Source of the DNA: Phoronis australis
Taxonomy: Eukaryota; Animalia; Phoronida
Assembly: GCA_002633005.1 (NCBI GenBank)
Contig: NMRA01000144.1
Coordinates: 608,248 to 672,247 of the forward strand
Direction of reading: 5' to 3'
DNA: 64,000 bases
Position 1 is the stretch's first letter, and each line of letters starts with the position of its first letter. Position numbers and translations under genes: made by a program. Of the stretch, positions 4,133-33,673 are shown piece after piece. Below the pieces are notes generated by a model. The model was given only the letters and a program-made list of their open reading frames with translations, was not told the origin of the DNA and did not search any database.

Positions 4133-4297
4133 CAATGGCGTATTTAGGGGGTGGGGGGCAAGGGGGCCATGCCCCCCCTCTAAAATTCTCCCAGATTCCA
4201 TTTGGCAGTTCGGGGGTGCGAATGTCTGAGGGGAAAATTCCGGGCTAATACTCTGCCCTGCCCTTTCCCATAACTCAAAATTCTGGATCTGCCTCTG
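4133..4297 (-). mobile_element. MITE family A (CAG(G/T)GGCGGAT termini, 5-bp TSD), full-length copy
   Basis: Imperfect TIRs; AAAGA duplicated at 4128-4132 and 4298-4302; reverse-complement homologue of 27974-28135. Confidence 0.8.
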
Positions 4298-10122: not shown

Positions 10123-12868
10123 GGCAATAAACTAAGTGTTAGACGTTCTTTGCAAGACCAAAAATCGCTTCTCAACTCTTGAGTAAAGAACAAGTTGCGA
10201 TCAATTTTATAGTGGTATGAAGTCTAAACATAGAACTCAAGAGTTCTACGGTATAAGCGAGTTTCTTCGACGCTTTATTGTCACTTTAAGATAAGTTTAG
10301 AAAATAAATGTACGGTTGATAATCAATACTTAAAAACTTGTTTGATAAAACTTGCGTCACAATCACGATGGTTGACAGTTTATTACTTTAACTGGATAAA
10401 TTTCATGACAGTATGTAGACTATACACATTTGGATTTGCATGTTATCTTATTTAAATCTACTAAAAGCGTGTGAAATTATTACCATATAATATAATCATA
10501 TAATTATGAAAACAATTAAGTGGATGCTATTATTCCACCCTCTAGTTACTAACACAATGGAGTCAGAACACGACATGGTAAGGTTGACCTAGGTCTGGCA
10601 ATGAACTGATGGAAACGGCAGAACGCGCAAATGGACAAAAGATTTTTACTCACATTTGTTCTCGCAACGTGACATCGGCGATATCAGTTTAAGTTATTTC
10701 AAAATAGTTTTTTCCACTTCTTGGAATGATTATGCACTATTCATACTTAGTAACTCCGGCACATGTTGCTTGTGTTTTCGTCACACACACGCAAGACAAC
10801 GCGCGCGCATTTTTCTTTGCTGGCGAACGGGCAAAACTTGCTCCCGCACATTATTCCCTGCTCGCGAAAGCTATTCTATACCCTCATACACCCTTCCCAT
10901 CTCTCGGACCACTTCGAATAACGCGATATAAAACCTCTACGCACAAACCAATTGGGAAAAGTAAACACATTTCCGTCAACTTTCGATTATTCGTTTACAT
11001 ATATTAGTGGCAATGTTTGTTAGGATACAGTGAGAAAGTTATTGAACACACTTTAAGCTCAACAATACACGTCGTCCTCTTATGCGGTGATACCTTGAAC
11101 ATGAGTATTGATAACGTATAGGAAATTTTTGCGATGAAATGTGGTAAACCGGATAACAGTTACAGTGTGAAGTGAGAGAAAGATAATTCTCATTTCATTA
11201 TATACCGTAATAACTCTATTGAAAAAGAAGCCACAAGCCCGCAGTTCACAATAGTATGTACAAACTTTATTCACGTGCAGACAGTCATTAAAGATTGAAT
11301 ATTTCGCTTCTAATCATCATTTGCCTTTGTTTGTACATGGAAATATTTTCTAAAATGTTTACTGCCCTCGACTTTGAAAGAGACCTGATATTTGATTTTA
11401 CCATATCCAAATAATTTATTGAAAAAATGAAATAGCAAAGAAAATAGTTAAGTTGCTGGATTTATCCGTCAGCGACGAAATCAAATGGCACCACGGGGAT
11501 AGAATAATGTGCGGGAGAAGAAAAAAGTATGTCCGTGAAAATGGAAAAGTGGTTTGGGAGGGGGAATATCGGTCCGCAAGAGGGTATTAGTGTGCACGAG
11601 AGAAGAATTTTGTGCTCGGGCAGGTCCGTACCGCTCGTAGGCAGGGAAGACCAAGTAGGCCTACCTTGATACGAGAGTTGGTAGGCGTGTAGACCTATAA
11701 TACAAATTGATAGCTTGCTCTACAGACATGCGACACAGGCAGAAGCGACGTTGGCCTTTGGGGATCTCCGAGATCTCGCGGTGTTTGCGTTTTGTACTCG
11801 GTACAAATGGTATATAAGTTAATAAATGTATCACCCCTCCCTCTCTCTCACTTTCCCTCTATCCAGAAATATATCGGTTAATAACACGTATTAAAAGCAA
11901 CCTGCTACGAGATTAACCCGTATCATTAAACAGGTTAACGGGCCTTAGCCGAAATGGAAAGAGAATGGTTTTTAATTAATAAATTCAGTTAAGAAGCTTT
12001 TTTAGGAAAAAAGGTCACAACCATTTCCAACTGCTTTCCGTTTCCACACAAGTCGAACTTCGTTACAACAGACATAGAACGGTTATAAAGGCAGTTATGT
12101 ATTCCATTGCTTTAAATTGAACAACATTGAAAATGCAAACAAGAGGTGTTATAACAGTAGTGAGCAATTGAGGTGTTACAGACACGTGAACATCTCTGTT
12201 TCTAACTGGGAGCACCATTCGAAATTCATCGTGAAAATGGAAGAATAACATTGGTAACAAATATCTAAACCGACAATACGTCTCAGTGCTACTACATTCC
12301 AAAATCTGAAAATGGCAGTCGACAACACAAGGCTGTGATAGCACGGTATTAACAACAAGACTACTCTTCTCTTACGGAGATACATTAAACTAAATACACT
12401 CGCTCTCCACAATTGGTATCGCAGCTACATGTACATGCAAAAGTTGATAATCTATTGCAGACTTCTCTGCTCTAAATATGTAATGGGTACTGTAACTACT
12501 GCGAGGCCAAATGACAAGCCTTTTAGACCCGAGATGCAAGAGAAAAAAACAGAAAGGTTTTTTATCAAATCAGACAGGCGATTCAGGTGCTCCCCGGAAT
12601 TGTCCACAACTAGTTGTTTGGCCCACTGATTCTCCGAGTATTAAAAAAACACATTTTCTCGAATATTTGGGTCAGTATGCGTGCACTGGAAACGCTCAGT
12701 AAAACCAAGGAGTATATTTTTTATCAGTATGAGTATAAAACTTCACTTAACCATTACAAAATGGAAGGCGCCGATGTGCATCCAATGTAGCATCGCCTAT
12801 TAAATGATAAAGATTGAGGCAAGACAAAAACACATAGAGAAATCTCAGCTCAAGAAATGCATATATGC

Positions 12869-13141
12869 AAGGGGTGCCGTTTGTGCCATAGTCTTGCTTC
12901 TCGCCGCTATGCTAGTTTTCAGACAGTATATGTATTCACTTACTTATTTCGAAACTTACTGAGTTGACCAGTCTATCACGTTGTCCATTTTCACGTTTTA
13001 AAAAGGGTTTTAAAAAATTACAAAAAACAAGAATTTCATTGTTTTATACCTCTGGCCAAAGCTAATGACTTCAAAAGTCTATCTCATCTAACAATAATAC
13101 CAAACATGCGTTATTTGGCCGTAAAAACGATGATCCCTAAA
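12869..13141 (+). mobile_element. Family B-related element (diverged)
   Basis: 3' part homologous to ~22150-22240; internal part (TTACTTATTTCGAAA...TGAGTTGACCAGTCTA...TTTCACGTT) homologous to ~690-760. Confidence 0.55.
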
Positions 13142-13646
13142 TGCGCGCATGCACACGTAACAACAAGTAGGCAAATTTATGCGCACCTTTGATTAAATTT
13201 TTATTTGTTTGAGAATACTTTCTGTCCTAAAACAGGTGCGTTCACCAAAAATTAAAATCACGTTATTTTTCCCTTCACGATGTATATGCAACTTTGCTCG
13301 GTATACATATAGGAGAGTGTTCTATTTGAAGTCATGTAGTACGGGGTTCCTAAGGTTTATTCATGGACGAGATAAAACAGCCCTACAATCACCTACTGAA
13401 CAGATGTTTACGTTATCAACTTAATTGTTTTCTCTGAAAGTCGATTTTTCATGGGTGAAAGTAAATTGCTAAAAACTAATTCATGAGTGGTTTAACCCAT
13501 TATCAGGGCATAAGAGCACAAAACTTTACTCGAGACAGACTCGCGAATGGAATGTAATCTGTCAATTTTCAAGATGGCACTCAATAGTTTTTTGAGGACG
13601 GTTGAATTTGGCTCCCCCCAATTTCATTGACAGTTGTTGGACTTAC

Positions 13647-13668
13647 CTTTGCTCAGTCGTGGCTTTTC
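13647..13668 (-). other. Candidate 22-nt exon
   Basis: Minus strand reads CTTTCTGTGTTTTATGTCACTTTAG|GAAAAGCCACGACTGAGCAAAG|GTAAGT, with near-consensus acceptor and perfect donor. Confidence 0.35.
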
Positions 13669-16600
13669 CTAAAGTGACATAAAACACAGAAAGCAGACTA
13701 AATTGCATTATTCAAAGTGGTTCTTTACCACTGATATACAAGTCAAACTGTTTACTAGGTACTTTTACGTTTTTATTCGTAAACTTAAGCTTTTGAATTT
13801 CTATTGATATCTAAGCATTTTTCATTTAGTTTCTAATTTAAAATAGCGACCAGTCAACTGCCCGTCACTTCTCCCACAAGGCAAAGCAAGTCTCCTTAGT
13901 TGGTAAGGTAAAACATAGACGTAACATATATTCTTTGGTGAAAACAAAACAATGGCGATTATGCATTTGGGAAACGTTTATTGGTGAATTCTTCGAGCGC
14001 ATGCGCACATTTACACATTATTAGAGGCAGAGAATTTGAAAACTGTTATTAGGATGAAAGTTTATAATTATTTGATCTGTGTTTCAAAATAGTGATTTTT
14101 CTCAAGAAATTCTTGCAATGTTCTGAGTGAACAACTCTCATGTTACCACCACCAAGAAGTACATTCGCCACCATCTGCTTAAAGGTATTTTTTACGAGTT
14201 TTCACGTTCCAAACCCCTTTAAACCTTTACTGCTTGCAAGCGGAAAGTTGAAATTTAGCAAGAAATTCAGGTACCCCTCAAACACCCTTAGATTTGTAAA
14301 CATATGGCTGGTCGACGTCCACTTCTCACCTGATTTCTGTAATCTAGAGTGTTATGACAGTCTGAATGCATTGTCTCATAGTTGAGAGTAATCGCATGCA
14401 AATGGTGGGTTGGGGTGAAAACTGCTGATTTGGTGCACTATTTATAGGTTTTTTAACTGTCCGCTTGCACTTCCGGTGGTCTTAAAGATGTATTTGCATG
14501 CTCCTCAGTATGCTAATGTATAGCAGGAACTAAACGTCTATTTGAACATCATCTACGCCAAACAAAGTGCAGTTGTATTCATTGACAGCAACAAATGTGA
14601 AAACAAAAATTCTGAAAACATGTGACCTTTGCACTAATGACGTACCGTGGGGGCTCACATAGCCCGCATCATGCAGTGTTATTATCCAACACCGGCCACG
14701 TCACTATACTTACTGGACACGGTTGAGTAATTTATGGCGGATCACTTTCGACACAAAACTCGTTCTTAGAAACATTTGGCAATTTTAAACGTACTTTATA
14801 TTCGCATCATCTCCATATGTTGTGTTTCTAACTAATTTGACCAAGCAATCACAGAGATAAGGAATTAGCGTGCAAGTTCCGCTTTAAATGATGGAAAATT
14901 GACTTTGGCATCAGTTTCAATAGACTTTGTGCAAGGTTTTTAAAGTCTCTGGCCAAGTACACTGTTCATATTTTCACCTTTTGCGCACCCTGTGGAACCA
15001 GTGCTGTACTGGTAAGTAGGCGCCCAAAGCCCACCTTGAACACTGAACGTAACTAATGGTGCGTAGGCGCTACGTTCAAATGCCAAAAGGTGGTTGGCTG
15101 CGCCTACGTCCCTGTGAAAGAGACTGTTAGAGCTGCCAAGGCATGGCTCTTCAAGCCCAAAATCAACAAAAACTGTCGAGTGCGACCTCAATTTACGTAT
15201 CCAGTCAAGATCGTTTCGTACTTTGGTCTTCTCGATTCCCATGATTGCACTGAGAGAGCACGGTCGTTGCAGACACTAAATTGCAAGATAACACACAACT
15301 GAGTATCAAGCTTCAATTTTCACCTTATGTACCAAATTAAGACTCTACGAAGAAACGGCGAAATTTGAGCCAAAACGTATAGGGAGCCCATGTACATTTT
15401 TTTTTCTCAAATCAAGCCATAATATACTTTCACATTTTGGCAATACCTCACGTTTTTTCCCTTTCTTTCAACTTCTTGGATTATGGAACCAAAGCTGAGA
15501 AGGGTTTGAGACTGGTTCGAAAATCTCGTGACTGACAAACAGTTTTACTCATTCGAGTAAAATGTAATGGTGAATGGTAAAAATAAAAAAATCGGTTGTA
15601 ACGGGATCGATGAGTTTGAGGCTCTAACACTAGTGCTAAAGTTTCGAAATATTTTGGAAACTTTCTCAGTGCAATCTGTCGCCTATAGTCTCAGCCCAGT
15701 GGCACAGGACCGACTGAGAGGTGTTACTCATTCCATTTGGAGAGGAAAAGTAGCTTTAAAATGAGCCCCACAAGTTTAAGTGTCAACGTGCCTTCATCTG
15801 TTGATTATCCGCTTGTTAACTCAATAGATTTGTGTGATGACCAACCGTTAATTAAGCCCTGGACAGTGTGGCTGATTCATCGTGCCTGGATGGGTCAATT
15901 GGATTAATCATGTCGGCTGTTAGGCATTTCAGCCGCTCACAGACAAGATATATTTCGAACTGTCGACAGTAGTAGAAAACCCAGAGACATGACGGCTTTA
16001 TAACAACTTAATAAAATATTTACTACCGTAATGTGACTTGTGCGAATGTCAGGGGTTTAATTAAATGCGAATTATTTCAATAGACAGTTTCATCCCTTTG
16101 GCCGTCTATGTAATCTATTGTGATGTTAGTGTAGACTGTTGGAGCACCGTCTCCGGCAGCAGCGCCGATCAGTTGAGAAGCGAAGATAAAGAGATACACT
16201 TAATTAGACGTTTATTGTGATTAAACCGACAATACCGCCGTCATGCGTTCAGGAAAATTTTGCATATCACTTTCGAAGCGCACGGGCCCGCATCTGGCGC
16301 CGTCTCGATAAAGAATGAAATACGTGTCGATCTGTTTTCTGTTATGAAATGACCGATTTTTTTACAAAGTTCGTTCAGAATTCTGAGTGCGAATTTCGCT
16401 CTGATTTTCGTAGTTAAAAAACGCTGCAGCAGGCGCCGAAGAGAAATATGCACTTGTTGGTCGTCTAGCATGTCTCTGTCTAAATGGTCATTGGAAAAAC
16501 TGTTGATTAGCGTTGAGTTATTAATGACAGAGCATGCTGGAGATCACACGAGTTTTGTCTTGTTAGACGCCTGTTTATACGGCGGCTAATTCTTGAACAG

Positions 16601-19600
16601 TACGTTATAGCACTTCATTAAGGAACCGTGTTCATTCTTGCCGCCGTTGGAACGGTTAAATAATCAAAAGTTCGTGATCGCGCATACACAAATGTTCCAA
16701 CAACACATTCTTAGCAATAACGTTTAAAGTCAAATCAATCCTATACCAATATTGCTCCAACGTCCGTCGATGTCATAAATCGAGAAGTGTGTTTTTATGT
16801 GTTTTATCCATTCCATTAACATTTACGGAGTGTTGCCTAATTTGATATTTTGACAAAACTCCAATTAACGGCCAGCGGAATCTGTGGTGGTGCATAAGTT
16901 GTCGGCGGGGATAAAACAGGAGTTAAACGGAAGACATGCATAGCACCAAAATCCATCACGTCTTGATAAGCTGTCACTTCTTTGGCATCAACGAAGACTG
17001 AATAAAGCTGCAAATGCCAGTGCTACCGTACTACAGTACAATTTGTTTGCCATCAACCAGATTGTAGTGAACTACTGAAATTACCTAACTAAATGCATGT
17101 ATACAAATAACCAGTCATTTGCGACATTGCATGTGTTTCTGACAATGACGATCCTGGGCAGATTAAAAGAAGTTAAAGAACCCAGTAGGGCCTATAGTAT
17201 TCAGCATTCGAACAGAAACGAGTCGCCTCGGGCGTGGTCAGAATTAACCTGGAGAAGAGTCCTATGATAAGCCACCCTCCAATTAGCACAGGTCACGGGT
17301 AGGTGAACAGACATGCCTGAGTCATTAATTCACTATGAATTTCAATCTTGTTATTATCTGGTAGTCTTACATGTTTAGTTACGTTACGTAACTGACCGGG
17401 TCACGACATGGCACGGAAAGGTTGCCGTTAGTTAAAGTGCTGGTCCCAGATCAAACGACACATAAGAAATAATAGTAAATAGCAGAGTACAGGGAGAGAC
17501 TAACTCATCCCATACATGACTGCTACTCTAATAAAACTTTACATATAATTATAAATTAATGGTACAAGTTAGCTGCCGAGCGAAAGTACCCACAAGTGAG
17601 ACAACACGACATATTTATTTCAAACCTTACAGCTAAACTATTTCGCCGGACTTATATTACAATTTTGTTTCTTTTCATTCAATACAAAAGTATTTATGCA
17701 CTCCAAGTAAAGCAAGAAAATGAAAAATGGTGAAAATCCCTTGCGTTGATATGTTTTTTATTCAAATAAACAGACATGCAGAACACCGTGTAGGTGGGTA
17801 TTATTAGCCTTACTAAAGCATGTTGTTGTATAACCAATACCTTCTGTTCAAAACAACTTTTGGTTTTCGCCTCTTGCCATTATGACATCGGTCTCCTATT
17901 GTTCCTTACATACTCTGATTAAAAATGCTTTCTAAGCTTTAGTACAGAACTGACACGTCGTTATGATTGCTTCACACTAGGTTCATTTTTTCAGCCCCCA
18001 AGGCAGTATATGGCCGTCAGGAGAAATCCAGGCGATTGAAACTTAATTCAAACAAAAGCAAAGAACGCGAAGAGCAAATAAGAACGTAGGTGTTTTTTAC
18101 ACCAAGGAACTTGATGACCAAAGTAGTAAAGCTAGAAACTCGAAATCTTGAGATTTTACTCGAAATCTCATTTTAAACCGATTTTAAGCTCAAATATAGC
18201 GGTCATCAAGTTAAAATTTGGACAAGAAACTCGTCTGCGTAAACCACAATGATCTCTAGCACAGAATAACAGACACTTATCTTGAGTTTGCACAAATATG
18301 ACAAATGCTGAATAGAAAACGTCAGAATTATTTTGGAGTTCGATACTAGTACAAAGGTCAGACTTTTGGCCCAGAGCATAACTTATAGCGGTAAAACTCC
18401 ACGAAGCGCCATCTGCGAAAGCAATTGTTTTGTTCCGTGTTTTGGGAAGGAACCCTTCATTTGTTTTTAATTTGAATACGCCGGGTTAGCTTTTCTAATT
18501 ACGCATGAAAAAAACATGGATCGAATGGACTTCATTGATTAATCCAGCGGAAAGATTCGCCATCTCTAACTTCATTTGTTTCACTTTAAATTTGTGATTT
18601 CGGCTTGACCTATGTGGGTCTTAGATATTCTGTATCATATAATATTATTGATAATCAAACTCGTTATTTTCCATTTGTCCAAATGTAGTCATAGCACTAT
18701 TGTGAATAGTTCTTGGCACACGACCAAGGATGACAGATCACAGCGTTCAGTGACAATGTCTCTACTGGGCGTCATGTTTGAAATGCAAGATAGCACCTTT
18801 CAGCTTCTCATTCTACAATTCAATACAGCGCGCAGCAGGGGGTAATCTCCGTCAGGTGGCTAAAAGTAGCGTGTCACTCGTTGGTCATACTCGGGTTTGA
18901 GATTAGAGCCATCCCTGCAAATTTTAAAGCGTGGCAGAGGTGATTTAAATACGGCATGAAAAAAGAACCACGCGTGACAGTCAAATGAACAAATCTAGAG
19001 CCTTGTTCATTAAAGTAGCTCACAGTAATTAAGGATTGAGGATCAAACAATTATGTAACTGACACTTCAGCCATTAAATGCCCGCCCAATGGATTTTGCT
19101 GCACTGGTATAAAACTTGCTGCGTGTTAAGCTCTGCAGCGTGATGCGCAAGTTCAGCTGTTGGATTACCAAACGACTTTTAGGCTTGTTTGGCTCAACAA
19201 TAAAGAGTTTTCGAAATCAATCTGATCTGTATTTTTTGTGATCATTAAAAACACGGATGTAGAACTTGATTTCTTAACAATCAGTCTAAGTTTTACAATG
19301 GGTTTCAAAGATGGCGCAACACGTGGCTTTAAGGTACAAGACGTCATTGGTTATTCAAGTGCACAATGGATGTCAAACTTAAAAAAGCAACTGTTCAACC
19401 AAAACTGAATGTCGTCGTTAGGTCCACTTATTTGGCTATCTACCAAACCGTTCTAAGTTTCTGTTAAAAAGTGGGTCAGACAGTTTATTGACGTAGACAT
19501 AAGCGAGGGTAGCCAATTAGTTCAACACGCCGAAAAACCCGCCAGGAATAACAGGTAACAGATCTCCGGACGCTGCTTAACTCCGGATTACTTCGGAAAA

Positions 19601-20347
19601 TTTTGGGCAGCACAGGTGAAGCTTTTTAGAGATTCTCACTACGTCCCTGACGACAAAATTATCAGCTGAAGTGCAGCATTGCTAATTAACCTCTGCCCGT
19701 CCATTGCATCTCTAGTTAAATATCAATAGCAATGCCCAGGTAGAATAAAACAAGATGCGATAGACTGACGTTGTCACCTTGGCAACCCAATGAGTCATAT
19801 CGTTGCACCACGACGGGCAATGCCCTGCTGCGTATGACAAGTGAGGCGCCCAGAATATTCTATTGACGGACAAACTTTTGTGACACACTCAATGCAAAAT
19901 ATATTGAATCGATCGAGTCAAAATGACATTGGTAACGCTGCGCTGACAATCAAAAATCATAAGCTTTGTAAATTCATTTGAGCCAGCGTGACAGGCGACA
20001 GGCCATCACGTCACCATTACGTGTGAAGAATTACCCAATGACAAGCACACTTTTCTTGGACGCGTGCCACACCATTACCTACTGTTTATCTTGGTTCGTG
20101 CTTCCCGCCATTTGGGTTCTGGCACTTATAGGTGTTGGGATTCCCCACAACACCGATGCACAAATGCGAAGAAGATTGAATGAAATGTGTAACATTATCA
20201 TAATTACGAAAAGAGAATTTATTGCGGATGTGAAATACACCAAAATAACACAACTTTACAACGAACACTTCTCCAAAACAAACCCAAATCGTGTCCTGAA
20301 AAGTTTCATCTAATCAGGGCATGTTGCCAGCGCATCGTCATCGCTAA

Positions 20348-20450
20348 CCAATCAAATAGCGTTACTGTGAAGATAACCTGTGACCTTTTAACCTAAATAA
20401 AAACCAAAACAAACCGCGATCGCTGGCAGTAAGTAAACGGGTTTCATTGT
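20348..20450 (+). promoter_or_regulatory. Candidate core promoter of the BH3-only gene
   Basis: CCAAT at 20348-20352, TATA-like TAAATAAAA from 20394, Inr-like CAGT (~20427) and TCATT (~20443), in a CpG-rich context ~300 bp upstream of the ATG. Confidence 0.4.
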
Positions 20451-20517
20451 GTAATGACACAACAGAAAGGAAACTGAGTGCGATAGCATCGCAAGCCAAG
20501 GTGAAGTCTGGTCATAC

Positions 20518-20670
20518 GTGAGTCGATCTGACTTAGTGGATCATAAACATTAGCGAGAAATACATATGTACTCGTTGCCACTTATACGGACGCTAGCCAT
20601 GTGACTCACGCTACGTGATGTATATTAGCAGTAGGCTCGTAGAACTAAATCAGTTTTTGGTCAGCTGCAG
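20518..20670 (+). other. Candidate 5' UTR intron of the BH3-only gene
   Basis: Donor-like AC|GTGAGT at 20518 and acceptor-like TTTTTGGTCAGCTGCAG ending at 20670. An alternative donor CA|GTAAGT lies at 20429, so the boundaries are uncertain. Confidence 0.3.
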
Positions 20671-20734
20671 ACGATCGTAAATCGATTACTACACTGGGTT
20701 CACGAGGGACTGGTACGCTTGCTTGCCCAAAGCG

Positions 20735-21196
20735 ATGGCACGCTCGACAAACACGTGCAATTCAAAGTCATGCACTAACGGAGTAAACGCCCGTGCAGAG
20801 TTTTCACCTGAGCAAGAGGACAATATTAAAGACGTTGATGACGCTAATAACAACGAGATACCTGGAAACATTGACTTAAACAACAACGAATATTTCATAT
20901 TGAACAACAACTTAATACAAGAGGGCAACCCTCTTAGGGAAATGGCGATCCACGAACAAGTAGGCTTAGAGGGTGCCGTCGGACCCGACCCGACGTGTAT
21001 ACAACAGGTTGCCGACCAGTTGCAACAGATTGGCGATCAGATGGAGGACGAACTCGTGGCCTCTCGAAGAAACCTTCCATCGTTAGACATTCTGAATGGA
21101 TTAAGATATTTCCTTTCGTCTCAGACAGACTCCTTAGTGCTAAGTGCCCACCTTATCCATTCAGTGATAGTTGTGGTTGTGCTCTTGAGACAGTGA
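20735..21196 (+). CDS. Putative BH3-only pro-apoptotic Bcl-2 family protein with C-terminal tail anchor (BIK/BID-like architecture), 153 aa
   Basis: Longest ORF in the window; first in-frame ATG at 20735 in good Kozak context (gcgATGg; the track's TTG start at 20723 is not used). Residues 89-107 IQQVADQLQQIGDQMEDEL fit the BH3 consensus (hydrophobic I89/V92, L96, I99, G100-D101, M103). Residues 134-151 LVLSAHLIHSVIVVVVLL followed by RQ-stop form a tail anchor. Orthology to a named vertebrate gene cannot be assigned by eye. Confidence 0.8.
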   Translation: MARSTNTCNSKSCTNGVNARAEFSPEQEDNIKDVDDANNNEIPGNIDLNNNEYFILNNNLIQEGNPLREMAIHEQVGLEGAVGPDPTCIQQVADQLQQIGDQMEDELVASRRNLPSLDILNGLRYFLSSQTDSLVLSAHLIHSVIVVVVLLRQ

Positions 21197-21249
21197 AAGG
21201 TAAGAATCTGTTAGATTTTGATTTAATTATTTTTGCTGCATGTTGTCTC

Positions 21250-21324
21250 CAGGGGCGGATCCAGGATTTTGAGTTAGGGGAGACCAGGGCAAAGTTGCCC
21301 CCCCACCCCCTAAATCCGCCACTG
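21250..21324 (+). mobile_element. MITE family A, internally deleted copy
   Basis: Same termini CAGGGGCGGATCCAGG / TAAATCCGCCACTG; flanks GTCTC / GGCTC (4/5 TSD match). Confidence 0.75.
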
Positions 21325-21662
21325 GGCTCAGACAACATGTCAAATCACAATAAAATCAGGGTATTGTTCCTCAAGATCCACTATTTAGCAAGTCATGACG
21401 TCAAATACAGTTATCCCAGTGCCCCGGTTTCAGGGTTAACGTTACATGATTAAATAGGGCATCAGATAAATGTTAGTGTATGTTATTTGAAAGGCCATGA
21501 AGGTCGGTCAAAGAAATCACTGGTAAACGGCACAATACACAGCCCTTTTCGGTGGCACCATCTGATTGGGGAAAATTGTAGTAAAACTGGAAAAGCAAAA
21601 CTAGTAATAAGATCCAGAAAAGTAAAGAACTAGTGTCCGTAGTTTTGCCAACATGTAACAAG

Positions 21663-21682
21663 TATCAAGCCCAGACTTGTCT
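21663..21682. promoter_or_regulatory. p53/p63/p73-type response element
   Basis: TATCAAGCCC-AGACTTGTCT: two RRRCWWGYYY decamers with zero spacer, both cores intact, second decamer perfect, 18/20 overall. A further degenerate half-site CAACATGTAA lies at 21649-21658. Confidence 0.5.
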
Positions 21683-21769
21683 TGGATAGTGAATGAAGCA
21701 TTGTTCTTTCTACAAACAAAACACTGTAGAATCGCGGCTACAATTGTATGCGTATAAGTGTATGTGTAA

Positions 21770-21797
21770 GTGTGTGTGTGTGTGTGTGCGCGCGCGC
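21770..21797. repeat. (TG)n(CG)n microsatellite
   Basis: Uninterrupted alternating purine-pyrimidine tract. Confidence 0.9.
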
Positions 21798-21898
21798 ACC
21801 CGCGCGCTCACCAGCGTGCGTTTACAAATAGCTTCAGTATATACGGTTACATGTTACAGTATAACGCGAGATTTTCCTGAAAGCTGTACCATATTTAA

Positions 21899-22236
21899 AG
21901 GGATATTAGTGGCGCGAAACGTGATTTTCTGGAACCACCCTCAATATGGAATCAAACATGCAACCCCGCGGTCATAGCCTAACGCTCTGTCGGTGAAGCT
22001 AAACCTTACTCGATGAACGGCAAAGTAATAAGCGTGTTTAACAAACTGATTGGTCACCGACCTTGATTTCAGCGAATGCCTGGCAGATAACGGCTAGAAT
22101 TTTCGATTTGTAATAAAACTACAAAACAGCGATTCTTGTTGTTTAACAGCTCTGGTCAAAGCTAATAACTTCAATAAGTCTATTCCAGCCAACGATAATC
22201 CCCTGCGTTTTTTGGCCGTAAAACCGATAATGTCCC
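21899..22236 (+). mobile_element. TTAA-flanked non-autonomous DNA transposon, family B (Kolobok/piggyBac-like)
   Basis: TTAA-AGGGATATTA ... TAATGTCCC-TTAA; the 3' part (CTCTGGTCAAAGCTAAT...GGCCGTAAAACCGAT) recurs at ~13050-13140 and ~70-172. Confidence 0.7.
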
Positions 22237-24331
22237 TTAAAATAAACTTTTTTATTTCAAAAGCTGAGCGAGGTGCGCCACTTCAGTTGTCAACTCCATC
22301 GATGGAGTCAACCCCAAATCAAGATAACGAGATTTGAAAACAATTCTGGCTGCGATCCATTTGCTGAAATGGTAAGCGAGTACGGGTGATAAGGGAACAC
22401 AAACAAACACTGCCTTTTGTTGTCAGACGTAGTTCCAGTGTCCTAAAAATAGATCCAGTCAGTTTGGAATAAACCACAAATCACCCCTCGCGGGCTCGTG
22501 TCGCGTCGTTACTACACCAAACGTCAGTCAATTGGGTCGTTGACTCATATTAGAAGATAAATTTTTATTGAAAGCACTTCGGCTCATTTTTGTTTACTAT
22601 TCATATGACTTTTTCAATCGTGATTCAACCATTCTACCAGGAAAAACTTGGCCCCGAATCAACATCGTGGCGCCAGTCGAAAATCTAGAATAATAGCACT
22701 GACAATTTCGTGAACAGTGTTATTTTTGTCATACGCCTATGTTGACAAAACTCAATAAGCTGTGATAGCGCCTTTACGACGTGTTGTATTCTAATGTTCG
22801 ATTTTGCACCATTCGGACGATCACCTCAGAGCCATAGATACGCGAATCGCCATCAATAACCAAAACAAACAACAGCTAGGGTCACTAAGAATTAAAAAAG
22901 CTTACAACACCATTTTGTGTGAAGTTATCCAGGCGTTGTATAGTAAACACTGTGTCGGTTGGTTGTGTGCTGGGTCAATAACTGTGTGTGTCGCGAACAA
23001 GTGGATTTGTTTTGACGCGTGCCTACACTTGTGTCGTTGTTAATTCGATATTAATTTACCACAGAGAATGCGTTTTTAAGAGGACAGGATTATTTTATTG
23101 CAACACATATCGGTGTTGTAACAAACAAAAAGGAAGCGCTGTTGAAGATACATGTTATTCTCTCCTGTTATTACGAAGTGTCACTTCTGGATTGAGTTTT
23201 CTAAATATACTTTCTTTCTGTTGCTCCTCAGCGTTCACAAACTACGTTTTATTTAATAACTTAAAAAGATTGTAAAATGAAAATTCCCAAATAATGAGTT
23301 CAATAGTCGTGGCTCAGTAAACGGATATTTATGTAAATCCCCGGAAAGATTTAGGAAAACCCCAAAAATCATACGAGATCAAACAGCAGTCATTCAAGGC
23401 GGGGACACGGGTCAAAACATGGAGATACGGCCATGACCCTTTATCAACTAATTTTAAAACGAACTTTCTTATCTATTTCTACACATTGCTTTATGGAATT
23501 CACGACTTAACACAGCCACGTTTATGGGACGCAGTGAAAGAATGTCTCACAGACAGGAATTATTTAATGAATCATAGGCTGATTAATGCAAAATTGTTAT
23601 TAATAGCATTCACACAGCGGCTATCATTAATACATAACTGCAGGCTTTAATCTACAAAGAACGAGGCACAAATATACATTTGCCATAAATAAAACAAAAT
23701 AAACAAGCGACAAATTTCAACACGCCGCAAAGAAGTTGTCGAGCCGTATGAATTCCCATGTGTAAGAAGTTCCTGGATAATGTTCAAGCAAGTGCTCTGT
23801 TAAATTTTATCTTCTCTGTGTCTTTTGTTTACAAGAGAGGGCTATTAAGATAATATGTGATTGACACGTGCCATTTATTCGCCGACCTGCTCAGACTCGA
23901 TCGAAGATTTCCAGGAGCTAAGTCCTTTTGCAGGTTTTCTCTTGCTTATCCAAATATTATCCGCAGGATATTAAATTGTGAGCCCTTTGTCAAGTGCTCA
24001 GACCCGGGGCTCAGACAGACGGCTAGTTTGTGCATTTCACTGAACAGGTTTTCATAAGCAGCCAGATCGATAGAAAATGATAACCAACAAAACTGTTGAT
24101 AGACTTTCGATCGCTAAACAACTGCATTAGATTATCGCTATGACTCACCATTATGCCTGTCGCAAGTATATACTCGAGGTATGGCTCCTTTTTCGTCACG
24201 TATCGAACGCAACAGTGATAGGACAGTCCAATATCACTTCTTACGCAAAACGTGCACCTCTTCATTTATTGCAATCTAAGAAGCATCGAAGGTTACGTAA
24301 CGCACAAGATTAAATTTGTGATTTGTCTTAT

Positions 24332-24522
24332 CGAATTAAAATTAAGCTTTTTGGTATACATTTTTAAATAAAAGCGTCCGACCTTTAGTCATGTGCCACC
24401 GTTAAGTTTATATTTAGTTGATTTGTGCTCTGAAAATCTTGAGCGAATTAAAATTAAGCTTTTGGTAAACATTTTTAAATAAAAGCGTCTGACCTTTAGT
24501 CATGTGCGACCGTTGAAGTTTA
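24332..24522 (+). repeat. Recent tandem duplication of ~78 bp
   Basis: CGAATTAAAATTAAGCTTTT...TAAAAGCGTC(C/T)GACCTTTAGTCATGTGC at ~24332-24410 and ~24444-24522. Confidence 0.85.
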
Positions 24523-25617
24523 AAAGCTTCAACAGTCGCACATAACTAAAGGAATGATTTCTCTAAAAAGGTATGGTACCGTCGAGAATCCCAAGCACCA
24601 GAAATCAAAACGAGGAATTTTGTTTCGGCCTGTGACACATAACGTCCTGAATCAAATTGTCCAACGACAAAACCGTTACGCAATTGCTTCACACATTCGC
24701 CAAACGTGGACTGGAGTCCCCAGAGGTCCAGACGGTGCCTGGTCATTGCGGTTTATCCAAGTAACTGACAATACACGTTTATATGGCAATCCTTACTTTG
24801 TGTATTCAAGCGAGGAAGAGGCAATTTAACGACTGAGGGGGCATAAATAAATGCTGACACTTGACACTACAGCATTTTTTTTTCTGGAAAAACACCACAT
24901 CACGGCCGACAATTCTACACGTATATGGTTGTTTGAGAAAAACTAGTCGCACATTTATGGTTAAATATAATGAATTGATAAGATTGTAAGGTGATTAACC
25001 CTGTATGTTGAATTAATGAACCAGTCGTTTAACAAGCAATGAAAAGATATCAGAAGACGAATTTTCAATCATTCTGATAAAGAGTCGGCCATTGTATAGT
25101 GTTTCGACAAGCACTCGTTAACTCTCCAAATAAGTAGACGCCCTATCCAAATTAATATACTGTAGACCATTATATAAAACTGCTCTTGTGATGGAAAACT
25201 AAATTCAACGGTAACATAACAACGCTAGACTTGAGGGTGACCGATTTGTTCTGTGAGAGAGCAATAAACGGCGCTCACGTGTTTTGGCATCAAATCTAGG
25301 TACGAAAAATAGACAAAAGCTTCAATAAAGCGTTGTTTAAACATACACTCACCTTTCTGCCCGAGGGTGAAATGTCTATCGATTGATCGTGTTTCAAGAT
25401 ATTTTGTACATTTGAACTTTGACGATTTAATTGGATTGTTTTATTTGAGCTAGACCTAACGTGAAACTTCATTGAATGGTGCACCTATTGCAAATCATGC
25501 TCCACCCAATCGCGTAAATATTGAGTATGAAATGCTCGGCTTTTTGATAGTTCAGGTGCGGATAAGGAGTTATTGAACTGAAAATATCACTGACCTCATT
25601 TCTATTTGTTATTTCAG

Positions 25618-27605
25618 ACTACAGAATACATGGGCCGCCACGTACATTAATTTTCATGGTGGTGCATCGCTGACCTGTATGCAGTAGGCCTACTACCTTT
25701 CAGCAATTCCATGGTGACAAGATCTCGTCTCAAGAATTGTCAGCGTGCTAGATGAACTGAAAGCATGTATTGGGTTCGGATCTCATCGGTAGGAGGAACG
25801 CGAGAGAGAAAACATCCGCATATGTCGCTAATACGTCATCAAACGCAATGCTAAACAGCTTTTCATCGGTACGGACAGGTGCGCGCTTTGATGCTACTCG
25901 CGACTGGCACAAAATTCGAAGAGACGTGGCATTCGCTGCGCTGCTAGGACGACATTCGAAGTGCCTGGAAAACGTGGATGATAGGATGATTCATTCTTTG
26001 GCACCGATTCAACAAGTCGTGTGGAAGACGTTAGGGGTATATCACTTGTCCAGCTTGGCGAGAAAACATGGACTTGTGTGTAAGAAATGATCTCATCTGT
26101 ACAGTTGATAGTCACTTGTTTATATTTGCGACCTTATTGGCTCAAGGCTAATTGTTTAGTTGAGGATCTCTTGTGAACTTTATTGACGAGATCTCACTCG
26201 ATTTGAGACTTTGTTGAATATGTTGGCGACCACGTGGTGGTGATTTATTAAATATTTGTAACACGTGTAAATAGAACAAATTTTTCTAAACTTTTTATTG
26301 TTTGATCTACCGATCCGAGGTATCTACCTTCGCTTTTTGCTCACTTGTAAACGTCCCTTTATCCGGTCAATATTTAGGCGGATTCTCTATCGACCAGTTA
26401 CTACCGACTAGTACGTTTTGTAATCTTCCACTGTATCTCCGGGCGCTAAAATCTAAGTGCGTAATAATGATTTTAGCACGCGGGACGATATTCTGCGCAG
26501 CAAACATTCGAGAACAACCTGGGCACAAAGTTGGCATTGAGCCAAAGTTTTTGTTCCAAACTTTCCGCCACGGGGTTTTTCACGGTTCAAGCGATGGGAT
26601 GTCAAAGGTCGCACGATTATGGCACGAGGCCAGGTGAAGCGACACGTGTTTATTGGGTGCCTGAGATGATTGACAACCCTTTGTTGGCATCGTTATATTG
26701 GGCGCTACAAGTGGGACTGAGCGATGATTTACCTCAAGCGGTAATTAAAATTTTCACAATGATCTCAAGAATGTACATAGTGTGGTTTAGTTAGATTATT
26801 TGTAAATATGTACTTACTTTTGTGCAGGTAACTGTGTTGGTCACCAAGTTACGCCAGTAACAAGAGATGTGCCATAACTGAGCAATTTCTCTCTTTAACA
26901 ACCCGTGCAATTGACGTGACATTTCCAGTTGAATTTGTTTTGGTTATGCAAGTGCAATGCGACATTAGATAGCTATCTGAATGTCAAATTCGAAACTTAG
27001 TGCCTCATACAATAGAGCCCAAAGACTGTCCTTGGTGACATACGCATGTACTTAACCAGTATTATCCATAAAAGTTGAAACGGCAAGTATTGATTTATGA
27101 CCAGTATTCTCCCCTCACTTAGTCAGGTGCTCAACACATAGTCAGTTTACAAATGTGGCTTTATCAGCATCACTTGAAAATCACATTGGGCAATTTTTAA
27201 AGTTGATTCAAGTTGGAACAATGTGTATACTGTCACCACTTTAAAACATTCTATTGGAACCAGTACTGTGTTGTTTATGTTTAATTTATTTTTCGTTTGT
27301 AAATATGTAATTCCTGTTATTGTTTTGTTATTATTATATTTAATAGTCAGGTGCTTGATTGACTGACAAACATTGATGTGTGCCATAGAACAAATTAAGT
27401 CAGGTAGCACACAAGAAATTGATGTTTATGGAGTATTAAACTTAAAGTCTCCCTTTGTTCAATTCCAAAATAGACATGGAATAGAAATGGGAAGTTTGTT
27501 GGTTTTTTTTGAAATTTGGAATTGTCATGTTGAATTCCTGCAAAATGGCAAATGAATCCTTGTTGTGCAAGAAATTGAAAATAAAATTGCTGTAAATGTA
27601 AATTT
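25618..27605 (+). other. Candidate terminal non-coding exon (3' UTR) of the BH3-only gene
   Basis: Starts at a strong acceptor; contains four Pumilio TGTAHATA elements (26266, 26772, 26801, 27298), U-rich tracts and conserved-miRNA seed matches on the + strand; AATAAA at 27580-27585. Confidence 0.5.
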
Positions 27606-27973
27606 ATTTGCTTATTGCAAAAAGTCAACAAGAGCAATGGACAACTTCACCTATATGAATGAAATCTCTAAAGTGTGAGGATGCAAAATTGTACTATTAA
27701 CTAATTAAGTTCATAACAGTTTTATTTTTAAGAAACTTGTGACAATTTTTACCAACAAGCACAATGAACAGATCTAGTGACAAATCGAAAACCACACAAT
27801 GCATGTAATTTAGGTGCAGGACCTCCTGAGAGGCACTCTTCTCAGTCAGGGTGGGTAAAATGAATTTTAAATCAACCAATCAAGTCAACACCAATTCCAA
27901 ATTGATACATTTCGAGTTACTTGAAACTTGAAACTCATTTTTTGAAAAACCAAGTGGAATTATCCTATACCCA

Positions 27974-28135
27974 CAGGGGCGGATCCAGGATTTTAAGTAA
28001 GGGAGGCCATGGCAGAGTATTAGCCAGGATTTTGCCCATCAGACATTCGCACCCCTGTAGTGCCAAATGAAATCTAGGATAATTTTAGGGGGGGGGGGCA
28101 TGGCCCCCTCCCCCCCCCCCTTAAATCCACCACTG
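27974..28135 (+). mobile_element. MITE family A, full-length copy
   Basis: CAGGGGCGGATCCAGG...TAAATCCACCACTG flanked by ACCCA direct repeats (27969-27973, 28136-28140). Confidence 0.85.
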
Positions 28136-28434
28136 ACCCATTATCATACAGCCACAATATACAGGTGCTATTTAATGGTCAGATACAAAGAAACTTCTTT
28201 TTCCTACAAAACACCCATTTGATATGGAAGCAAATGCCAGCAAATAACCATTTGATATGGAAGAAACAACAAAACCTGTTCCAAACATCACACACAGATG
28301 AGACTTTACACTTGTAACAGTTTACTGGACTTTTTTAATACTCCAAAGCACCAAAAGAAACAAGCTAATCATAATATTTTTGACTTCTTTGAAGCAATAA
28401 AATATGAATCAAAAATACAGCTACCTTTTAGTCA

Positions 28435-31400
28435 TTTATTATACAGTGTACTACATTGCTTGACAATTCATTCACAAAAATCACTAGCAATTTTTTAACG
28501 AGTTTCTTGCAACACCTGTGCAATCTGCAACCAGAATGAACAATAGAACAATGTTTGGAAGAGGACACAAAAACACTGGAGCAATCTGTGCAAAACTGCT
28601 TCAGCACCACAATCCTGGTTGGCACTAGGATAAATGAGTTTTTGCTCTGGTTCAAATACTTTTCCATATCAGGGACCTGGAAATAATAACTATTCAAGAC
28701 TCAATGACACCAAACCTCATCATAAATTTAGTTACATTTGTAAATAAACAAAAATATATACATGGCCATAACTTACAAAATGTTCCTATTTGATACAGAT
28801 TTCTTTAAAAACAATTCGACATTGATTGTTAGATAACTCCTGTCTGCATTTCTCCTATTGTCTAAAAATACTCCTTGTGTGGGGATCCGATCTGTGCAGT
28901 AGTTCCCAAGCAACATGGTTAAAAGAACAAATGATAGAAAAATTGTTTTAAAAGATCATGTTAGACCTTAGTACTTCTAATGTACACTACATTCATGAAG
29001 GAAAGAAATAAAAGAGATCTCAGTGAGTAGTACCAGACATCATAGTAAAAGTCATGACATAACAAACCATGCACAACACAGAAATAGTCAGGGTACTTGG
29101 CATAGCAGGTTTTTAACGAAATCTGCATCAGAGAGGAGCTACTTCCAAATTTGGCTGCTGTCCACTGAATGGAAACAAATAAATGTAAACACATTTTAAC
29201 AACACCCTGAAACCCTTCTCAGGATGCAGGACAACATGGTGCAGTTTGAAAATAAAATAAAAAAATCTTTCATGTGAAATCCAACTATTCTTGAACAATG
29301 CTTTATCAACAATGAAATATGTCAATTTCAAATATGAGAATGGTGAAATTAAGCTAAATCAATAGCAAAAACAAGTAAAAGTTGCCTGCTGAGTGAAATG
29401 AATATACATGTATCTAACTCCTGTCATAGAAATGAATATATCTAACTCCTCTCGTGGCAATGAATATATCTAATTTCTTTTGTAGGAATGAATGTATGCA
29501 ATTTCTCACTTCTTTTGTAGAAATGAATGTATCTAATTTCTTTTGTAAGAATGAATATATCTAACTTCTTTACTAGAAATAAATATATCTTTTTTTTCAT
29601 AGGCATGATTTTTAAAAAAGAGAAAAACAATTTTGGATTGCACTGTTTCAATTTTCAAGGTCTCAAGTTACATAGGTATAGAACATGTTAACAATTAATT
29701 TATTTTGGTACATGTACTTAAATGAATTTTTTCAAAAAAAAAACAAGAAAATTGGTGAAAAATACTTTATTTGCAACATACAAAATGCAGATGGAAGACC
29801 AGTTGAGAATTTTGTTTTTCAAATATCAAATATTAAATTGGGTGCTGACAAAATCAAAAGCATGGCTTAATATATATTTCCTGGATAGTCAATAGAATAT
29901 GTTTCTTTCTTGTTTCTAGTTAGCTATCACTGTAGGGAATTTCTAATATCAGTGTTTTCCTTTCAGGCCACATCACTTGCTCCCTGGAGTTGTAACAGTA
30001 AAATCTTATAAACTTAAGACACAATATGCCAGAGAGGTGAAACTTTATTTTCTCATTTTTGCTAAATGATGTACAGTGCCAAAATGATGCTTTGCCCTAT
30101 CCATGTTCTGTACCATAATTACCAACAGATGTTTTTTAAAAAAACGTGGGCATTCACAGGAATGTTAGAAGATGTTGAATAATTTTTGTCCATACAGTAG
30201 CACTGGTGAAAGGCATACTGCTTACAAGTGTAAATATGGACAGGAAAACCTCTCAACAGTATGCTGGTTTAAGCTGTTAATTACGTATGACCAGCACATC
30301 ACAGGTGCAAACCAAGGGCTCATCAATCATTTCAGATGCTTGTCATTTAGTAAGTCATTGTGGGAGTCCACTATATCAAAAGGTTAACCAAATAGAAATG
30401 TGCACAAATAACACTACTGTGTCTAATCCTGGCTCAACAGATTGGGTTTCAGTTTAAATACAATAAAAGTAGATGATTTTAAGCAACAGTAGTTAACTTT
30501 TCTACTACTGAAGCTCCAGTGTTACATGTGGCAACACCAAAACTTCAGCTTCAGAGCCAATAGGCAAGGCCTTTAAGACAAGGGGAGTATTAATTCTGCA
30601 TAGCTAATGCCTCAACAGTGACTAAGAAACTCCTTATGAAAATATTCCTGCATGTTACATTCTCTGAAAGGCATTACCTCCACACAGCAAACAAAACAAC
30701 ATTGTGCTCTGCAGCTATAAGAGGGGATAATGCCTATGCCTTGTGGCACTGAATGGATCTTAGGGTAGTTTTATATGCTATGACTTGACTTTACTCATAT
30801 TAGTGGTGCAATTTGAAGTCACAAATAACACCACTAGTTGTTAAATATCAATTTCTAACAAAGCACATACCCATGACAAAAAGAATTGTCTGGTCATCTA
30901 AACATAAAATAAAATAAACAAAATGTTAAGTAACAGAATATGTTCTGAAACCAAGTTTAAATAATTTAATAGCGTGGTCATTTCACTTATTTCAATCATT
31001 ACTCTTGCTAATAATGCTGTAGTTGATGTTGTTTTTACTATTATCACCTGATTAAAACAGAGCATTTAGACATTTCTTTCTGGCAATTTTTGACTACTGT
31101 ATTCATTCCAGTTAATACTCAACTCTCCAAATTTTGATTTTTAAAGCCCATGCTCCCCTCAACGTTTTACCGATGTTTATACCAATCCATAGTTACTCAA
31201 TTAAATGTGCCAGTGTCTTCATGAAAGCCCCTATCACACAATTATCATTCCCAAAAGATATGTAATGTGTTTACCTTTGAGTAACCAACAGTCAGTTTCA
31301 GTGGAACCTTGCATATTCAGGAGGGAAAGTACTGTCAACTAATCAACTAATTGACAAACATTATACCGGCAAACAAACTTTCATTTTGTCAAATAATGAG

Positions 31401-33673
31401 GATAAAGACAATTTTTGTCAACTTTTCCTCGAGTTTGTACAATGTAGCTAACATAAAACAACATTTGGTAAAGTTTCCATGATTTGCAGCAAGGTAATTG
31501 GCCCTTGAAAGATGGAAAATGACAATTTTGACAATTATCTATGTGTGAAATAAGTGAAGAATTCCCGTACCCTGTGTATTCGGCAACCAAAACCAAGCTT
31601 TCATATTCTATCAATTATACCAAATGACATAAAAGAAAAATGCCAACTACATTGATTCAATGAACAGTAGAAAGGAATATTGTGTACTTGAGTAGTCTCA
31701 TATTTTCTACCTTCCCAACTGACACTGGAGTTTAACCAGTCATTTCAATTCAATTGAACTGGACAAAAATGGATTATGACACATTACACAAAATAAACAT
31801 TAACTTGTAGAATTCATTGAACTCTATAAGGCTAATTAAAGGATTATGTGGCTTAACACAAGGCGGAAATAATTTCTCATTTTTTGAAACTGAAATTCCA
31901 AACTGAGTTTTTGTTAACAAGTTGATTGTGCTTAAAGGATGCTTGTCATAAAATAAACAAGTCTTAGTATTTAAACAATACTTTAGACTACCTGCACTGA
32001 CACAAAAATGGAGGTACCGAATTCCATACTTATTCTCTCTACAGTAGCAGATTTTCTGCACTGGGCTAATCTACACTGATCAGATTAGCAAAACAATCAG
32101 GGGTAATCAAGAGGCACTGACATTCCTTTACGCAAGCTGTAGCCCAAGTGCTGTCATAGAAGTTTTCTCCCATGGTGACAAAATTTTTTTAAAAATGTGA
32201 ATAAAGGTTGTGACCTTTTGAAGAAGTACTTTTGATTTGTCTTAATTTACAGTAGTAAAAAAACAAAAAATACAACAATGCAATTAAAAGTTAGAATGAT
32301 AGCTATGCAATGGTAATCAAAATTAGAAAAAAAACCCTGCAACAATATTCATATTAAAGAAATTCTTAAATCTGCACCAAAATGCCCTTTAAGAAGAATG
32401 AACTCAATGCCAGAGTAAACAGTTTACATTAGAAACATTGCATCTAGGGGAGATACCAAGTGGTCTTTTCAACAGACTGTTGTATTATGTTTAACTAGGG
32501 GAGAAATCAATAACAAAGAGACTTTCACTACAAAATGAAAGGCAAACCATTGACATAGACCTAGTAACCAAGAGTTTCCAGAGTGGGGACAACAAATCTT
32601 TTCATTGGCGTAATCACAAACTCAACAACGACAGGCACTTGCATGGCAAATATAATAAATGGCCTGTATATTTTATGTGAATCTCCAGTTGTGTACTTGA
32701 CTTCAGATAAACAATGTGTACAAAGGAGACTACGCCTGATTTATCAACATATTTGTTGACAGCAAAAGAATTAATAACTTCATAACCAGCAATCAGCCTA
32801 GTTCCATTTCACTTTCTTGAAAACGAATGTTTCAATGATGTAAACCATCCTGGATGCAAAGATAAACTCCCTATTGTATAATAACAGTCGGATTTAAAGC
32901 TGCAGTTTTTCTCAGTATTAACACTGTTGAAATTATCACAATTGAAAAATACCTTCGAAAATTAACCATGATTCCTTCTTTTCAATGACAATGATTCATT
33001 TTCTTCCAAAAAAATTTTTAGAACAAATAAATTTTGCTGAAGCAAAATGAAAACAAGAGACATGGAAAGTGCTGAATCCATCGTCCGTGAAAATTAGATA
33101 AAATTTTGAAAGGTACTTAAAACGAAGCCGGGGGATTTTTTTCAAATTCATTTCCCCATTTACACCTCACCTGGTAATTTCCAATCACGTTTTTCTGAAT
33201 TTTATTCTATACTGTGTACATGATCTGACTTCTGATAACCCATTCAGTTTGTTTAGCACCTAATGCCCTATTTGAGTAGGAGACGACAGTTGTGAACTTT
33301 TAACAATACATGCGATAAAACGAGAACTACGTATCTACCGTAACAAAATTGCGAAATAAGAACAACCATTAGACTGCTCACAAAACAACAGCAGTTGCCA
33401 GCTGCATTATTACGGTAGTTAACTACATCGGATATCCAACTGCACCTGATGACCTTAAAAGCATGTGTGAGCCAAGAAAATTGTATGACTTTCCATAAAC
33501 AGATGACAAACAGCAAACATATACATGACGTAAAACAACTGTCTGAGAGTGATACCAATACTGGGCGAAAAGCAAAACACATACTCAGTTCCAGTTGAGT
33601 GACTTGAAGGGAATCTACGCTTTGAGGGGCAAGAGGGTAACTTCAAAAACCAATATACAGTTGCTCCAAGGAC
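28435..33673 (-). other. Candidate terminal exon / long 3' UTR of an unidentified convergent minus-strand gene
   Basis: Strong minus-strand acceptor TTTTCTATCTCTTTGTAG|G at 33673; minus-strand AATAAA at 29766, 29699 and 28435 (also 27603); T/G-rich minus strand. Could instead be an 89-nt internal exon ending at GA|GTATGT (33585). Confidence 0.35.
29394..29592. repeat. Minisatellite, ~28-29 bp unit (GAAATGAATATATCTAAYTYCTTTTGTA)
   Basis: About 6-7 degenerate tandem copies. Confidence 0.8.

Follow-up and report, generated by a model that had tools for sequence, protein, structure and literature searches.

Intrinsic apoptosis is set off by BH3-only proteins, which act as its sensors; outside the vertebrates their repertoire is largely missing since homology search fails to recover it (PMC4715348, PMC5550854). 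The present locus raises the question of whether such a sensor is encoded in 64,000 nucleotides of gene-poor, animal-type DNA of about 37% GC, hereafter the window. An earlier note had proposed here a tail-anchored, pro-apoptotic BH3-only protein of 153 residues on the plus strand, and the gene offers one concrete, expressed candidate for this class.

Transcript and coding frame

Expression was followed in a contig set (X1) and in three RNA-seq runs, all paired and from a single study (X2, X3 and X4), at about 18–19% of each, with reads and contigs mapped on 14000–33900. A transcript over 20735–21196, whose absence had been named beforehand as fatal to the proposal, is present as stranded, spliced RNA. 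Each of the three runs shows expression of the gene: depth at 20776 is 11, 3 and 31 reads, all first mates there lie on the minus strand, which corresponds to plus-strand RNA, and the stranded reads at 20555, 20647 and 20776 are all in the orientation of the plus transcript, while most reads of an exon on the opposite strand have the reverse orientation and serve as an internal control for strandedness. An X1 contig runs unbroken over 20473–21138, and the coding sequence lies wholly in the first of two exons (Table 1). The single intron seen begins with the donor GTAAGA at 21200, and its joint, 21197>25616 (cut +2), is crossed by 3 reads in X3 and, in X4, by 19 reads with 17 different starts, with none listed in X1 or X2.

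Table 1. Features of the BH3 gene, of its predicted protein and of the opposite-strand transcript, in window positions.
Feature	Position	Strand	Remarks
Exon 1: 5′ UTR, whole CDS, 3 nt of 3′ UTR	20473..21199	+	5′ end at or before 20473
Upstream ORF, 12 codons	20566..20604	+	
Upstream ORF, 20 codons	20618..20680	+	shares the frame of the main ORF; stops at TAA
4-nt deletion polymorphism, 5′ UTR	20717..20720	+	within a GCTT repeat; in all 4 runs
CDS, 153 aa	20735..21196	+	start codon within GCGATGG (purine at -3 and G at +4)
N-terminal part, residues 1–85	20735..20989	+	acidic, Asn-rich, probably disordered; net charge -10
BH3 helix, residues 89–107, IQQVADQLQQIGDQMEDEL	20999..21055	+	hydrophobic moment 0.55; helix 86–109 in a low-confidence model
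Second amphipathic helix (predicted), residues 116–129	21080..21121	+	low-confidence model
Tail anchor (predicted), residues L134–L151	21134..21187	+	followed only by RQ; two His and two Ser inside
Intron, 4,418 nt, GT-AG	21200..25617	+	in the 3′ UTR, starting 3 nt past the stop
Exon 2: 3′ UTR, ~2 kb	25618..27600	+	AATAAA at 27580; probable 3′ end; stranded depth and X1 contigs (25758–27585)
Near last exon, opposite-strand transcript	28364..28676	-	convergent with the 3′ end of the BH3 gene
89-nt exon, opposite-strand transcript	33585..33673	-	splices to the near last exon (28676 downward) or the far exon (6352 downward)
27.2-kb intron, long opposite-strand form	6353..33584	-	would contain the whole BH3 gene

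Translation of 20735–21196 gives 153 residues ending LLRQ*, in agreement with the ORF described earlier as ending RQ*. This is the longest of the six ATG frames of at least 100 residues in the window, and by far the longest on its own transcript, where the next has 80 residues. An ATG frame of this length appeared in 2 of 3000 simulated 2.7-kb transcripts and in 12 of 100 simulated whole windows. The earlier claim of a real gene is borne out by a frame that is transcribed from the plus strand, spliced and longer than the chance controls.

Among the variants listed, those in the coding region are a synonymous change at T14 and the replacement P66T (X1 contig only), and the indels fall in the UTRs (20717 and 27501–27502), none of them inside the frame. 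The deletion at 20717 is supported by the X1 contig and, in the other runs, by 6, 2 and 12 reads at depths of 8, 4 and 32, and because of it the open frame that precedes the ATG is argued not to be coding.

We consider it very unlikely that this is a long non-coding transcript, perhaps the partner of the opposite-strand transcript described below, in which the frame has arisen by chance. The lack of a homologue, the upstream ORFs and the simulated windows would all suit such an RNA, but it would have to accommodate the rarity of such frames in the simulated transcripts, the coincidence of frame, motif and tail, and the confinement of the listed indels to the UTRs. Moreover, under the 50-nt rule of nonsense-mediated decay, a transcript with its intron 3 nt past the stop would escape that pathway.

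Several potential regulatory signals are found along the transcript. The 3′ UTR holds four TGTAHATA words (26266, 26772, 26801 and 27298), which we take to be Pumilio-type sites, against a mean of 0.18 and with none of 3000 resamples reaching four. About 460 nt into the intron, at 21663–21682 on the plus strand, a 20-mer agrees at 18 of 20 positions with what we assume to be the p53 response-element consensus, and further half-site cores stand just upstream of it (from 21649); since there are two such sites in 64 kb, this may be a chance occurrence. The intron also contains four FOXO-type words, GTAAACA/TGTTTAC (22591, 22943, 23826 and 24465), with none elsewhere in 17–26 kb.

The BH3 motif and its register

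The acidic first 85 residues of the protein include few hydrophobic ones, and they hold a LIR-like word, YFIL (53–56), after acidic residues, and a DVDD word (33–36). A single-sequence AlphaFold model is of low confidence throughout, as is expected without an alignment (mean pLDDT 41.6, too low for claims about the fold), and places helices at 86–109, 116–129 and 134–152.

As defined in PMC9171138, a BH3 motif comprises four hydrophobic hotspots and an acidic residue with a glycine before it, HP0 and HP4+4 being extra contacts. All of these (HP1–HP4, AC1, the glycine at AC1-1, HP0 and HP4+4) have counterparts in the 153-residue protein, in the register I89 (HP0), V92 (HP1), L96 (HP2), I99 (HP3), G100, D101, M103 (HP4) and L107 (HP4+4). 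The four hotspots of a BH3-only protein (V92, L96, I99 and M103), its conserved Leu and Asp (L96 and D101) and its small residue before the Asp (G100) are all present, and the motif that had been placed at 20999–21055, with L96, G100 and D101 at its core, proves correct in coordinates and numbering, with the full register present. The helix is acidic, with a net charge of -5 over residues 86–110, and is without the basic residues of BIM-type motifs.

A 13-position BH3 pattern was matched by 79 of 200,000 protein shuffles, its strict form by 12 of 200,000 and a short core alone by 2,373 of 200,000, and in the six frames of the window the 13-position pattern occurs once, at residues 89–107, and the short core three times; as the patterns were composed after the motif had been seen, these shuffle and window rates are optimistic. 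No NWGR occurs in the protein sequence, and no Bcl-2 or BNIP3 family appears in the Pfam listing (limit E 10, the HMMER filters dropping most matches above about 0.1). With only 46 residues after the motif, without BH4, and without the BH1 (NWGR) and BH2 that mark a multidomain Bcl-2 protein, the 153-residue protein does not belong to that class, as had been proposed.

BH3 patterns by themselves have little predictive value (PMC9171138), and ApoL2 carries a BH3-like motif without acting as a BH3-only protein (PMC4611713). We regard it as rather improbable that the protein is, in the same way, a lineage-specific tail-anchored protein whose amphipathic helix is merely BH3-like and binds something else. 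Besides the ApoL2 precedent, this could explain why no relatives were found in the searches run and why Gln-rich amphipathic helices of this kind match designed coiled coils too, but it leaves to coincidence that the hotspots, the Gly-Asp pair, HP0 and HP4+4 are all in register, that three unrelated libraries (Pfam, PDB and ESM Atlas) point to BH3 proteins, and that size and exon position fit BH3-only proteins (PMC7022251).

Array-selected human BH3-like peptides that were tested in solution gave some binding to a pro-survival protein in 36 of 36 cases (PMC4072508), which makes docking into the groove look likelier than killing. The chief alternative to a pro-death role is that the protein genuinely binds Bcl-2-family proteins through its BH3 and yet does not kill, either damping Bak like BNIP5 or serving autophagy as a membrane adaptor, by way of its LIR-like motif, like BNIP3/NIX; this is unlikely, although not far-fetched. 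Expression in all three RNA runs would suit such a ligand, as would the order of LIR-like YFIL, BH3 and tail, which recalls the layout of BNIP3 (LIR, BH3, tail); against the latter, the four-letter LIR pattern is a common one, the tail has no GxxxG, and the Pfam family BNIP3 is not listed. The closest BH3 peptide in the 33-residue PDB search is that of BNIP5, a BH3 ligand described as anti-apoptotic and able to protect cells (bioRxiv 10.1101/2022.07.24.499430). Against this alternative as a whole, the BH3 found here is canonical and not degenerate.

The hydrophobic tail

The hydrophobic C-terminus that had been seen at 21134–21187 is confirmed as L134–L151, with a best 19-residue Kyte-Doolittle mean of 2.43. 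It goes beyond the shuffle controls, of which 9 in 100,000 were as hydrophobic, and is equalled in 2 of the 622 stop-to-stop frames of the window, its own frame included. On a rough insertion scale, the tail with its two histidines is marginal, at about +0.1 for 18 residues. A hydrophobic helix at the very C-terminal end, as in proteins of the BIK/HRK type, is therefore a prediction from these values. We estimate, very roughly, that frame, motif and tail would occur together by chance in 1 in 10 million windows, this being the product of window-level rates treated as independent. Among mammalian BH3-only proteins, canonical transmembrane tails are ascribed in PMC11346437 to BIK and HRK only, the tail of BIK targeting the ER.

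Similarity searches

Every library match of the 153-residue protein lies below its own cut-off. In Pfam, the sole match is to BID, on residues 87–109 (E 0.034; 14.2 bits against a cut-off of 25; 23 of 191 profile positions). One PDB search ranked a glycerol dehydratase subunit first (E 0.032) and a GFP-BAX BH3 fusion below it (E 0.038); in another, with a 33-residue query, a designed coiled coil came first, and a BNIP5 peptide (E 0.49) followed after such coiled coils and other unrelated chains. In the ESM Atlas, 9 of the best 10 of 30 clusters carry BH3-only families (PXT1, BMF, PUMA, BIK and BIM). The top score there is that of a PXT1 cluster (0.90), with the top family flagged by the tool as probably wrong and a recognition value of 2240, under the mark of 2300; the top unnamed cluster goes under the name BCL2 binding component 3 (0.83). 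Pfam, PDB and the ESM Atlas may be taken as weak, independent pointers to the same 20 residues.

The family bcl-2I13 (PF12201), by which we would recognize a BIK orthologue, is not listed by Pfam, and the BID profile is matched too weakly and over too few positions for an orthologue of BID. As for BNIP3/NIX, Pfam BNIP3 is likewise not listed, and BNIP3-type tails require a GxxxG that the tail here does not contain. By these criteria, the protein does not appear to be an orthologue of any named vertebrate gene.

No homologue at E 0.001 was found among 1.84 billion representatives (full HMMER library). Word-indexed searches, which covered near-length and longer proteins as well as the region 76–153, gave 18 near-length candidates with none at E 0.1, 654 longer candidates with none at E 10, and 11 candidates for the region with none at E 10. 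The exact sequence is absent from the protein collections in which it was looked up, no relatives were found in metagenome and viral contigs, and tblastn against 72,556 plasmids gave no match at E 10. The suggestion that the gene is probably unannotated or uncharacterised agrees with this absence of the sequence and its relatives from the protein collections searched, and a literature search made without the species name brought up no paper that we recognised as dealing with the gene.

The similarity of residues 60–144 to glycerol dehydratase was judged to be chance, and a decayed, horizontally acquired small subunit of that enzyme (DhaB3) is scarcely credible as the origin of the gene. A match to NCBIfam PRK15443.2-3 at E 0.0029 (residues 60–144; 20912–21166), the PDB match to 1iwp_G at E 0.032 and a coding region without introns could be read in this way, but the NCBIfam match scores 17.5 bits against a cut-off of 285, the PDB alignment is gapped, no Pfam dehydratase family is listed, and there is no match in the 72,556 plasmids (E 10), the 1.84 billion representatives or the metagenome contigs. 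The tail would also be left unexplained.

Proposed function

Given the observed transcript, splice, frame, motif register and hydrophobic tail, we favour as probable the reading that the two-exon gene encodes a BIK-like, predicted tail-anchored, pro-death BH3-only protein that docks into Bcl-2-family proteins. The frame would be translated into a protein with a disordered N-terminus, whose tail would insert into an organelle membrane. Because only one basic residue follows the tail, the ER would be a somewhat more likely destination than mitochondria. V92, L96, I99 and M103 would fill the four groove pockets of a Bcl-2-family partner, D101 would pair with the BH1 arginine of that partner, and docking would lead to the release or direct activation of Bax/Bak. 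HP0 governs the activation of BAX by BID (PMC9171138), and I89 at this position would fit an activator role. The upstream ORFs and Pumilio sites could keep expression low, with stress increasing it. Should the protein kill, an invertebrate too would possess the BIK/HRK architecture, true tail anchor included, whether through common descent or through convergence.

Comparison with BH3-only proteins already described

Like BIK, the protein combines a probably disordered N-terminus, one BH3 with Ile-Gly-Asp-x-Met, a canonical hydrophobic tail and a similar length, and an ESM Atlas BIK cluster of 148 residues scores 0.85 against it. Unlike in BIK, the whole coding sequence is in one exon, and no sequence homology between the two was detected. 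According to PMC10107002, BIK is reported from vertebrates only, and the majority of BH3 proteins do not share a common descent.

The likeness to BID, its sole Pfam match, is confined to the BH3 (E 0.034). BID folds into a helical bundle, for which the 46 residues after the motif are too few. Both proteins have a hydrophobic residue at HP0 (compare I82/I83 of BID; PMC9171138), whereas BID is described in PMC11346437 as being without a canonical tail.

PXT1, BMF, PUMA and BIM are the nearest of the listed ESM Atlas clusters (0.90–0.81) and BNIP5 was met as a PDB peptide, none of them with alignment support. In contrast to BIM and BMF, the protein has no dynein-light-chain motif of the form (K/R)xTQT, only SQT at 129–131, and in contrast to BAD it has no match to the 14-3-3 pattern. 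PXT1 activates Bak through its BH3 (PMC10298792).

PMC8998228 puts forward BH3-only candidates in cnidarians, lophotrochozoans, echinoderms, hemichordates and amphioxus, and there is experimental support for BH3-only proteins of Hydra, schistosomes and nematodes (PMC7022251) and for Sayonara of the fly (PMC10107002). The present protein resembles these proteins and candidates (EGL-1 and those of Hydra, schistosome, fly, echinoderm, hemichordate and amphioxus) in being short or disordered, and in having a BH3 that lies on a single exon and is missed by ordinary homology search (PMC8998228, PMC7022251). The BH3 lies in exon 1 of 2, which is a weak pointer, the intron being in the UTR. The echinoderm candidates of PMC8998228, which we compare by description only, have 118, 350 and 373 residues as against 153. 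Unlike invertebrate candidates of the Bim, Bmf and Bad types, the protein is without their docking motifs and has a true hydrophobic tail. Invertebrate BH3-only proteins are thus already in print, and the protein adds a member to a known kind; with similar candidates published, its value is limited to that extent.

A transcript on the opposite strand

A transcript on the opposite strand seems to have a 27-kb intron that encloses the BH3 gene. The short form of this transcript is seen in the joint 28674>33583, with CT..AC, in 4 reads of X2 and 4 of X3, with none listed in X1 or X4. For the long form, 20 reads of X4 and one X1 contig have loose ends at 33584 that match 6322–6351 exactly and nowhere else in the window, and a canonical acceptor precedes this match; as the read mapping covered 14000–33900, the far exon is placed from the loose ends. 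The next upstream exon was not found in the window. Two frames of the 89-nt exon stop inside it, and at either junction the third is closed after no more than a few codons, so the exon would be either the 3′ end of a gene or part of a non-coding RNA. Reads of the BH3 gene are most numerous in X4, the run that also has the listed long-form reads, which says little with three samples only.

Morrbid regulates its neighbour Bcl2l11 in cis (PMC7460575), and we offer the parallel with the present pair of transcripts as a lead only. It is doubtful, and in our judgement improbable, that the protein is a membrane-anchored direct activator of Bax/Bak that evolved independently of BIK and HRK and is controlled by the opposite-strand transcript spanning its gene, on the lines of Morrbid and Bim.

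Genomic setting and repeats

The ratio of observed to expected CpG is mostly near 1 over 1–26 kb, where the BH3 gene lies in the undepleted part of the window, and 0.1–0.6 over 28–64 kb. The change is sharp and falls at about 27–28 kb, at the end of the opposite-strand transcript's near last exon. Mosaic CpG depletion fits the mosaic gene-body methylation of invertebrates, and because of this depletion and the long introns the host is probably an invertebrate.

Pfam gave nothing above the curated cut-off for 129 of the 130 minus-strand frames of at least 40 residues in 33.5–64 kb, nor for the frames scanned in the rest of the window, 98 of 166 on the plus strand and 49 of 147 on the minus strand. 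The four Rfam matches are all below the gathering score, at least three of them lying on CA/GT repeats, and no tRNA was found in the window.

A short interspersed element beginning CAGGGGCGGATCCAG has copies at 21250–21279, 27974–28096 and 4172–4264; reads that come from other places are drawn to it, and false joints result. Joints from 21278–21282 to about 28011 were rejected as splices, being artefacts of a two-copy 30-nt repeat. Another repeat, at 14846–15112, has imperfect inverted arms and many reads of both strands with loose ends, and is probably another mobile element. A tandem array of units of about 28 nt lies at 29385–29594.
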